Positions 50,601 through 53,600 of a stretch of DNA of 64,000 bases are shown here, piece after piece. The stretch lies in assembly GCF_988242995.1 (NCBI RefSeq), contig NZ_OZ547043.1. One strand, given 5' to 3'. Position 1 is the first letter of the stretch. Each line of letters starts with the position of its first letter. The position numbers were made by a program.

Positions 50601-53600
50601 CTCCAGCGCCTTAGAAGAACGCTGACGCGCGCGCGCTTCCAGCATATGGCCGAGATTGATCAGACCGATAATCATCGCGCTGGCTTCGTAATAAAGATGT
50701 CGCGCTTCCATCGGGAACCACTGCGGCCACAGGTTGACGCTCATCGAATAGAGCCACGCCACGCCAGTACCTAGCGCCACCAGCGTATCCATCGTCGCTG
50801 CACCGTTCAGCAGGCTTTTCCATGCGCTGCGGTAAAAATGCCCGCCGGCGAAAACCATTACCGCCAGGGTTATCAGGCCGATAACCAACCACAAGCTGCG
50901 GTTGTCAGCGGTGACCATCATGTTATCGCCGATCATCCCCCAGACCATCACCGGGATACCCACCGCCAGTGCGACAATTGCCTGCCAGCGGAAGCGCTTC
51001 ATCGTAGCGACTGCGGTTTCCTGCTGGCGCTCGCGGCGTTTAGCGTCATCTTCAATCGCTTCCGCGCCGTAGCCCGCTTTTTCCACTGCCTGCACTAAAT
51101 CTTGTGGGGAGGCACTGCCCATCACCAGCGCAGTACGCTCCGCCAGGTTTACCCGTGCCTGAGTGACGCCCGGTACGCTTTGCAACGCATTTTGTACGCG
51201 GGTGACACAGCTGGCGCAGCTCATGCCGCTCAGCAGCAACTGCTGGCTGTCATCGTCATCGGCGGTCGCTGCCGGAAGCGCCTCAGAAACCGCTGTCAGT
51301 GCTTCCGACGGGATTGATGACTCCGCCAGCGGTTTAGCCTTTGGGTGGCTTACAGATGCGTCATAACCCGCTTGTTTGATGGTTTCGATCAGCTGTTCTG
51401 CACTGGCAGTCCCGGTAACGTGCGCTTCAGTGACAGACACATCCGCCTGCTCAACATCCGGGCGCTGTTCGAGACTTTCTTTCACGCGTTTAACGCAGTG
51501 ACCGCAGGACAGGCCGTCCAGGGTCAGGTCGATAGTTTGTGACATAAAACACTCCTTTTAAGACAGTTTTGACTGGCTGTGATAAAGGTTAAACCTTCCA
51601 GCAAGGGGAAGGTCAAGAAATTAATAAACCAGGCGGGTAAAAGTCCGTAAAGATTAAAAAATCGGCTCGATTTGCATCAGGATTAGACATTTATCTCTTT
51701 GTTTTCCTGTAGTTAAGTTGCGGGTGCTAAGTTAAATCAGGATGCCTGAAAATCGGCACCGGGGTGAGGAATTACCTCCCGCATCTATAAAAAGGAGTTA
51801 ACAAAAGATGTTAGATGCAAACAAATTACAGCAGGCAGTGGATCAGGCTTACACCCAATTTCACTCACTTAACGGCGGACAAAATGCCGACTACATTCCC
51901 TTTCTGGCGAATGTACCTGGTCAACTGGCAGCAGTGGCTATTGTGACCTGCGATGGCAACATCTATCGCGCGGGTGAGAGTGATTACCGCTTTGCGCTGG
52001 AATCCATCTCGAAAGTCTGTACGTTAGCCCTTGCGTTAGAAGATGTCGGCCCGCAGGCGGTACAGGACAAAGTTGGCGCTGACCCGACCGGATTGCCCTT
52101 TAACTCAGTTATCGCCTTAGAGTTGCATGGCGGCAAACCGCTGTCGCCACTGGTAAATGCTGGCGCTATTGCCACCACCAGCCTGATTAACGCTGAAAAT
52201 GCCGAACAACGCTGGCAGCGAATTTTACATATCCAACAACAACTGGCTGGTGAGCAGGTAGCGCTCTCTGACGAAGTAAACCAGTCGGAACAAACAACCA
52301 ACTTCCATAACCGGGCCATTGCCTGGCTGCTGTACTCCGCCGGATATCTCTATTGTGATGCAATGGAAGCCTGTGACGTGTACACCCGTCAGTGCTCCAC
52401 GCTCATCAATACTGTTGAACTAGCAACGCTTGGCGCGACGCTGGCGGCGGGTGGTGTGAATCCGCTGACGCATAAACGCGTTCTTCAGGCCGACAACGTG
52501 CCGTACATTCTGGCTGAAATGATGATGGAAGGGCTGTATGGTCGCTCCGGTGACTGGGCGTATCGCGTTGGTTTACCGGGCAAAAGCGGTGTAGGTGGCG
52601 GTATTCTGGCGGTCGTCCCTGGCGTGATGGGAATTGCCGCGTTCTCACCACCGCTGGACGAAGAAGGCAACAGTGTTCGCGGTCAAAAAATGGTGGCATC
52701 GGTCGCTAAGCAACTCGGCTATAACGTGTTTAAGGGCTGATCATGATGAACACGGAAGGTAATAACGATAACAAACCCCTCGGTCTATGGAACGTCGTTT
52801 CCATCGGCATTGGGGCAATGGTGGGGGCGGGGATCTTCGCGCTGCTGGGGCAGGCTGCGTTGCTAATGGAAGCCTCGACCTGGGTCGCCTTTGCATTTGG
52901 CGGTATTGTGGCGATGTTTTCCGGTTATGCCTATGCGCGCCTGGGGGCGAGCTATCCCAGCAATGGCGGTATTATCGACTTCTTTCGTCGCGGATTAGGC
53001 AACGGCGTCTTTTCGCTGGCGCTCTCGTTACTGTACCTGTTGACGCTGGCGGTGAGCATCGCCATGGTCGCCCGTGCTTTTGGCGCTTATGCCGTGCAGT
53101 TTTTGCATGAAGGCAGTCAGGAGGAGCACCTTATTTTGCTCTACGCGTTGGGAATCATTGCGGTGATGACGCTTTTCAACTCCTTAAGCAACCATGCGGT
53201 AGGGCGGCTGGAAGTGATCCTCGTCGGCATTAAAATGATGATCCTGTTATTGCTGATTATTGCCGGTGTCTGGTCGCTGCAACCGGCGCATATTTCCGTC
53301 TCTGCGCCCCCCAGCTCCGGTGCGTTCTTCTCCTGTATTGGGATAACCTTCCTTGCCTATGCGGGCTTTGGCATGATGGCGAACGCAGCGGATAAAGTGA
53401 AAGATCCGCAGGTCATTATGCCACGGGCGTTTCTGGTGGCGATTGGCGTTACCACGTTGCTTTATATCTCGCTGGCGCTGGTTTTGCTTAGCGATGTATC
53501 GGCATTAGAGTTAGAAAAATATGCCGATACCGCCGTAGCGCAGGCAGCTTCTCCGCTGCTCGGGCATGTGGGTTATGTGATCGTCGTCATCGGCGCTTTA

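Follow-up and report, generated by a model that had tools for sequence, protein, structure and literature searches.

Does the copper-pump gene copA of Escherichia coli encode one protein or two? The question is raised by a stretch of 64,000 nucleotides from contig NZ_OZ547043.1 of RefSeq assembly GCF_988242995.1 (hereafter the window, meaning this whole stretch), in which copA lies on the minus strand and carries, early in its coding sequence, a heptanucleotide on which ribosomes could slip back by one base and so release a small copper chaperone, CopA(Z), beside the full-length pump. Judged by comparison of sequences, this is very probably the programmed -1 ribosomal frameshift site of E. coli copA: the heptamer, the stop codon that follows it in the -1 frame and a downstream pseudoknot are maintained together across the Enterobacteriaceae and beyond.

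The slippery site and its predicted short product

The copA product is a copper-exporting P-type ATPase of 834 amino acids with two N-terminal HMA domains (Pfam), and the site lies in the linker that follows the first of these domains. Plus-strand positions 51334..51345 read ttagcctttggg, the reverse complement of CCCAAAGGCTAA; in the copA direction, from 51345 to 51334 on the minus strand, this gives C_CCA_AAG GCT AA. The heptamer, whose first base is the third of codon 67, has, in frame, the X_XXY_YYZ form. In the zero frame the ribosome would read CAC CCA AAG GCT AAA (H67 P68 K69 A70 K71), and in the -1 frame, starting at 51345, CCC AAA GGC TAA, that is, proline, lysine, glycine and stop. 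Slippage is predicted to yield 69 zero-frame residues plus one glycine, a product of 70 amino acids with the C-terminus ...SHPKG. The elements of the site are the following, with the support for each in brackets.

49041..51545, minus strand: copA coding sequence in the zero frame, 834 amino acids (open reading frame; Pfam HMA twice, E1-E2_ATPase, Hydrolase; identical DNA is copA in RefSeq)
51339..51545, minus strand: the portion of CopA(Z) translated in the zero frame (codons 1-69), which holds HMA domain 1 and its metal site GLSCGHC (translation and Pfam)
51339..51345, minus strand: slippery heptamer C_CCA_AAG, the last base of codon 67 with codons 68 and 69 (sequence)
51334..51339, minus strand: -1 codons GGC (Gly70) and TAA stop, with G51339 read twice (translation)
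51333..51338, minus strand: spacer GCUAAA, 6 nucleotides, from the heptamer to the first stem (sequence; the same length throughout the aligned sequences)
51327..51332, minus strand: 5' arm of pseudoknot stem 1, CCGCUG (partner 51290..51295)
51301..51309, minus strand: 5' arm of pseudoknot stem 2, GUCGGAAGC (partner 51271..51279)
51290..51295, minus strand: 3' arm of pseudoknot stem 1, CAGCGG, within the loop of stem 2 (pairing, covariation)
51271..51279, minus strand: 3' arm of pseudoknot stem 2, GCUUCCGGC (pairing, RNAalifold, covariation)
51270..51356, minus strand: zone of suppressed synonymous change, codons 64-92, covering heptamer, stop and pseudoknot (synonymous-difference scan)

An initial annotation of this DNA had placed a heptamer C CCA AAG at codons 67-69, followed in the -1 frame by GGC TAA, at 51334-51345; it left the minus strand unmentioned, and both the sequence and its translation agree with it. 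It had also held that slippage would end translation after the first metal-binding domain, and the 70-residue product is a complete HMA domain, matching Pfam HMA positions 3-62 of 62 with 52.1 bits (cut-off 24.8), with its CxxC metal site in the motif GLSCGHC and HPKG at its end. This product resembles stand-alone CopZ structures of 68-73 amino acids, its relatives in the PDB including CopZ 6ff2 and 1cpz. The exact K-12 product of 70 amino acids is already catalogued: NCBI has it under the accession YP_009518752.1, named 'soluble Cu(+) chaperone', and the UniRef entry is titled 'Isoform Soluble copper chaperone CopA(Z)'. The product predicted here differs from the K-12 form at a single, conservative position in HMA domain 1, codon 38 (51431..51433, minus strand), which encodes valine (GTC) here and isoleucine (ATC) in K-12; because of V38 in place of I38, the exact variant was not found in a collection of 15 billion proteins, in which the K-12 form was present.

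The window is E. coli DNA. A query of 521 nucleotides comprising the promoter and the first 446 nucleotides of copA was found in 5422 of 5426 complete genomes and was 100% identical to two genomes among those sampled. Compared with a K-12-type genome, there were no differences from 88 nucleotides upstream of the heptamer to 153 nucleotides downstream, so that the gene, the heptamer, the -1 GGC UAA, the spacer and the downstream 150 nucleotides are those of K-12 copA/CopA(Z), with its products of 70 and 834 amino acids. The two differ by residue 38 and by one base in the 5' leader, which here has one extra A just upstream of the Shine-Dalgarno sequence; neither would affect the mechanism.

Frameshifting in K-12 copA, with CopA(Z) of 70 amino acids as its product, was reportedly described in Meydan 2017 (Mol Cell 65:207) and Drees 2017 (Mol Microbiol 106:635). 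According to other papers, -1 frameshifting in E. coli copA is efficient, has support from ribosome profiling and was independently confirmed (PMC9548414), and the 70-residue product is set beside the 834-residue pump (PMC5009743). They further name three stimulators of slippage, namely the nascent chain, a pseudoknot and the slippery sequence (PMC7558416), ascribe to CopA(Z) the role of a copper chaperone (PMC6771820) and attribute Cu(I) binding and copper tolerance to the short product (PMC6771820, PMC7558416). In single-molecule assays, the copA pseudoknot gave rise to -1 frameshifting and to ribosome stalling (PMC6182138). The initial annotation had described E. coli copA as a known source of both a transporter and a chaperone of ~70 amino acids, and this accords with these papers and with the catalogued K-12 product. 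It was also right to call the site not novel, since K-12 CopA(Z) has been described and is in databases: what the window carries is the already known site of K-12 CopA(Z). A literature search for papers on the conservation of the copA site found none.

Conservation of the cassette and of the downstream pseudoknot

We aligned 82 sequences, made up of 80 Enterobacteriaceae loci (species-representative genomes, one scan), the window and the K-12-type genome, together with a distant set of 11 Enterobacterales that includes Erwinia, Pantoea, Mixta, Salmonella, four metagenome relatives, Yersinia kristensenii and Proteus vulgaris. Among the 82, the heptamer of 79 was CCCAAAG and that of the other 3 was CCCAAAA, which is likewise slippery, and the -1 stop stood at the same codon in every one (TAA in 70, TGA in 12). 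Residues 70-71 vary among these sequences (AK, SK, SE, AD, AN, TE, PN, SD); CAC at codon 67, CCA at codon 68 and a T in the third position of codon 70 are invariant. C_CCA_AAR and the -1 stop are kept in the 11 more distant Enterobacterales as well, where the proline is preceded by H, F, R, L, S or Y, in every case encoded by a codon that ends in C. Codon 67 is the sole in-frame slippery position common to 82/82 sequences, the next most shared position being found in 9. A second in-frame heptamer of this copA, A_AAA_AAC at codon 333 (50541..50547, minus strand), whose -1 stop lies 26 codons further on, occurs in only 9/82 aligned sequences and serves as an internal negative control. A synonymous change disrupting the heptamer, which the initial annotation had said would speak against the site, occurred in none of the 80 other Enterobacteriaceae species and in none of the 11 distant Enterobacterales; the alignment of slippery site and downstream structure that it had proposed gave the heptamer in 82/82 and a pseudoknot paired throughout the Enterobacteriaceae.

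Synonymous constraint was also visible along the gene. In a pairwise scan of synonymous differences over 760 codons, the lowest windows of 9, 15 and 25 codons all started at codons 63-84, and the synonymous difference at codons 64-92 was ~0.05 against a gene median of 0.44, the gene-wide minimum. Of 5422 E. coli genomes, 5341 (98.5%) had an identical 90-mer across the cassette of heptamer, stop and pseudoknot (51266..51355), and the flanking 90-mers were identical in 1426 and 798 of them (15-26%). A 40-mer that has the heptamer and stop at its centre, and that cannot seed a match if any of the central 16 bases differ, matched 5416/5422 genomes. In the other 6 copA-bearing genomes one or more of these 16 bases may be altered, which would make them natural variants. 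Two plasmid-borne copies of the copA region were also seen among the E. coli genomes.

Downstream of the heptamer, an H-type pseudoknot can be read from the sequence after 6 nucleotides, with a stem 1 of 6 base pairs and a stem 2 of 9 base pairs, the 9-bp helix of stem 2 being predicted independently by RNAalifold. Both the spacer, for which ~5-9 nucleotides are expected, and a pseudoknot supported by covariation are what a frameshift stimulator calls for. We relied on covariation because ViennaRNA cannot score pseudoknots. In the Enterobacteriaceae 100% of the stem cells are paired; the stems are near-invariant, and the three one-sided changes that occur are all compatible with pairing. Compensatory double changes were found in 5 pairs among 75 distinct sequences, and in an order-wide alignment of 24 sequences they were found in 8 of the 15 pairs (3/6 in stem 1, 5/9 in stem 2), those of stem 1 occurring in Erwinia, Pantoea and a metagenome relative. 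In that alignment 97% of the cells are paired; none of 500 shuffles reached these values, and controls in which the stems were slid along gave 19-51%. Variable positions in the cassette coincide with the predicted loops, and the changes in the stems are compensatory.

Objections and alternative explanations

Several points weigh against reading the site as a programmed frameshift site. Within one sequence the signal does not stand out: the window has 3 copies of CCCAAAG where 7.8 would be expected, copA holds 2 in-frame X_XXY_YYZ heptamers against 1.9 expected from synonymous-codon shuffles, and a -1 stop two codons away or less is not rare by chance. With the heptamer unenriched in a single sequence, the case rests on comparison with other sequences, and it is through comparison alone that the signal appears far beyond chance. 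As for the structure, no double changes were found in the stems within the Enterobacteriaceae, so that more distant relatives were needed for covariation, which comes from 11 distant sequences and mostly from single events; the stems were, moreover, drawn from the E. coli sequence, independently of the published pseudoknot model. The nested minimum-free-energy fold of the downstream 73 nucleotides is not significant against shuffles (z = -1.28), and it pairs CCGCUG with a second CAGCG just past stem 2 instead. A search of Rfam returned no family at E <= 1 for the frameshift element. Finally, the RefSeq/PGAP annotation of identical DNA gives one copA coding sequence, and we infer frameshifting in this strain from its sequence identity with K-12.

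The single-sequence counts and the one coding sequence of automated annotation are both compatible with the heptamer and its adjacent -1 stop being a coincidence of codon choice, in a gene that yields the full-length pump only. At the codon use of copA, however, H-P-K is written as CAC CCA AAR with a probability of ~0.06 per independent draw, and this encoding holds in 82/82 sequences; replacement of the histidine by F, R, L, S or Y leaves the heptamer in place, every sequence has the -1 stop at its fixed position, synonymous change is at its gene-wide minimum, and there are published experiments on the identical K-12 sequence. We regard such a coincidence as highly improbable and, on the comparative data, as effectively refuted. 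A different account would have the short HMA protein come mainly from a separate short copA transcript, the RNA structure serving termination, processing or stability. The title of Drees 2017 hints at such a transcript, and a conserved structured zone might in principle serve either function. Selection on the heptamer, on the exact -1 stop and on the C before CCA would then go unexplained, though; a scan for intrinsic-terminator-like hairpins with a U-run on the copA strand found none within the cassette; the spacer of 6 nucleotides has the geometry expected of a frameshift stimulator; and it is -1 frameshifting and stalling that the pseudoknot produced in the single-molecule assays (PMC6182138). 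As the main source of the short protein a separate transcript is thus quite unlikely, but it and frameshifting are not mutually exclusive, and it may operate in addition.

The synonymous constraint might stem not from recoding but from another overlapping element, for example an antisense reading frame or a site where a protein binds the DNA or RNA. Plus-strand open reading frames of 67 amino acids (51163..51366) and 65 amino acids (51345..51542) do overlap the region, yet the constrained zone of ~27 codons fits the heptamer, the stop and the two stems and fits neither antisense frame, and within it variation falls in the predicted loops and compensatory changes in the stems; this explanation strikes us as exceedingly improbable.

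Under programmed frameshifting, the majority of ribosomes would continue in the zero frame and complete the copper pump of 834 amino acids. A fraction would pause, with CCA occupied by tRNA-Pro and AAG by tRNA-Lys, at the H-type pseudoknot 6 nucleotides downstream, which would resist unwinding, and both tRNAs would presumably re-pair one base back, onto CCC and AAA. The ribosome would then decode GGC, reach UAA and release CopA(Z), that is, the first copper-binding HMA domain alone, as a cytosolic copper chaperone of 70 amino acids. Pump and chaperone would in this way derive from one copper-induced mRNA.

Related systems, distant relatives and genomic setting

PMC10861913 names two chromosomal -1 frameshift genes of E. 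coli, and the window contains both. The other is dnaX, whose -1 site A_AAA_AAG AGT GA lies at 34014..34025 on the plus strand, beginning at the third base of codon 428 in an open reading frame at 32731..34662 (643 amino acids). The dnaX site, which gives tau and gamma, is like that of copA in being a chromosomal -1 heptamer that ends in AAG, with a near-immediate -1 stop and a truncated functional protein made beside the full-length one; the heptamers themselves differ, A_AAA_AAG in dnaX and C_CCA_AAG in copA. In dnaX slippage is stimulated by a Shine-Dalgarno-like element upstream and a stem-loop downstream. The stimulators of copA, unlike those of dnaX, are a pseudoknot and, reportedly, the nascent chain (PMC7558416).

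CopZ of Bacillus subtilis and Enterococcus hirae resembles CopA(Z) in being a protein of 68-73 amino acids with a single HMA domain and a CxxC motif that partners a CopA-type ATPase. CopZ has a gene of its own, usually in a copZA operon, while CopA(Z) is recoded from the first domain of the pump (PMC10187127). Human ATP7B is an orthologous copper ATPase, likewise with N-terminal HMA domains. A -1 frameshift in ATP7B is said to have been claimed in the same 2017 paper as that in copA. Later work on ATP7B found no frameshifting and no synonymous-site conservation, and found the site to be variable across mammals (PMC9548414). On each of these sequence-based tests the bacterial copA site shows the opposite outcome.

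In CopA relatives with more HMA domains, the cassette was seen before the last of them: at codon 137 in Yersinia kristensenii (three HMA domains; L092:708-714), at codon 204 in Proteus vulgaris (four; L093:909-915), and likewise in two metagenome relatives with three (L088, L089). These genes have C_CCA_AAA, a -1 reading of PKN-stop and compensatory changes in both stems. Since the cassette precedes the last of three or four domains, the predicted frameshift products contain two or three HMA domains. From the codon numbers of the sites and their -1 tails of three codons, the products would have 139 residues in Yersinia kristensenii, 206 in Proteus vulgaris and 214 in Plesiomonas shigelloides, where the site likewise stands before the last HMA domain. 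Plesiomonas shigelloides (L094:930-1030) has, in the equivalent linker, A_AAA_AAG within GTA AAA AAG CCT GAT, with a -1 reading of KKA-stop, and an 11-bp hairpin starting 7 nucleotides downstream (fold z = -2.27) replaces the pseudoknot of the E. coli type. This looks like replacement of the signal with the position of the -1 stop kept. On this reading the cassette would be an Enterobacterales-wide module that is always placed just before the last HMA domain, and we lean slightly towards the view that the multi-domain sites and the Plesiomonas site do frameshift as predicted.

Upstream of copA, its promoter was recognised from its layout; a consensus promoter scan restricted to spacers of 16-18 missed it, and from the known layout of MerR-type promoters it would be under CueR.

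51586..51616, minus strand: copA promoter of MerR/CueR-type layout (TTGACC, a 19-nucleotide spacer with the dyad ACCTTCC-N7-GGAAGGT, TAACCT)

The plus-strand DNA at 54373..64000, after ybaT, holds a gene for a TolC-family outer-membrane protein of 451 amino acids and then a giant gene that RefSeq names 'BapA-related adhesin SiiEA'. In K-12 and in FDAARGOS_497 cueR occupies the position of this DNA, which was found in 959/5426 E. coli genomes, the best match reaching no more than 96.9% identity.

For annotation, the site matters because copA would encode two proteins where automated pipelines give one; as PGAP-type pipelines list a single copA product, CopA(Z) is missing from most E. coli proteomes. 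If the Plesiomonas site is what it looks like, its exchange of signals would mean that selection acts on the outcome of recoding and not on one particular signal. In E. coli, the site would couple the output of a copper chaperone to that of its pump, an arrangement that the comparative data show to be strongly maintained.

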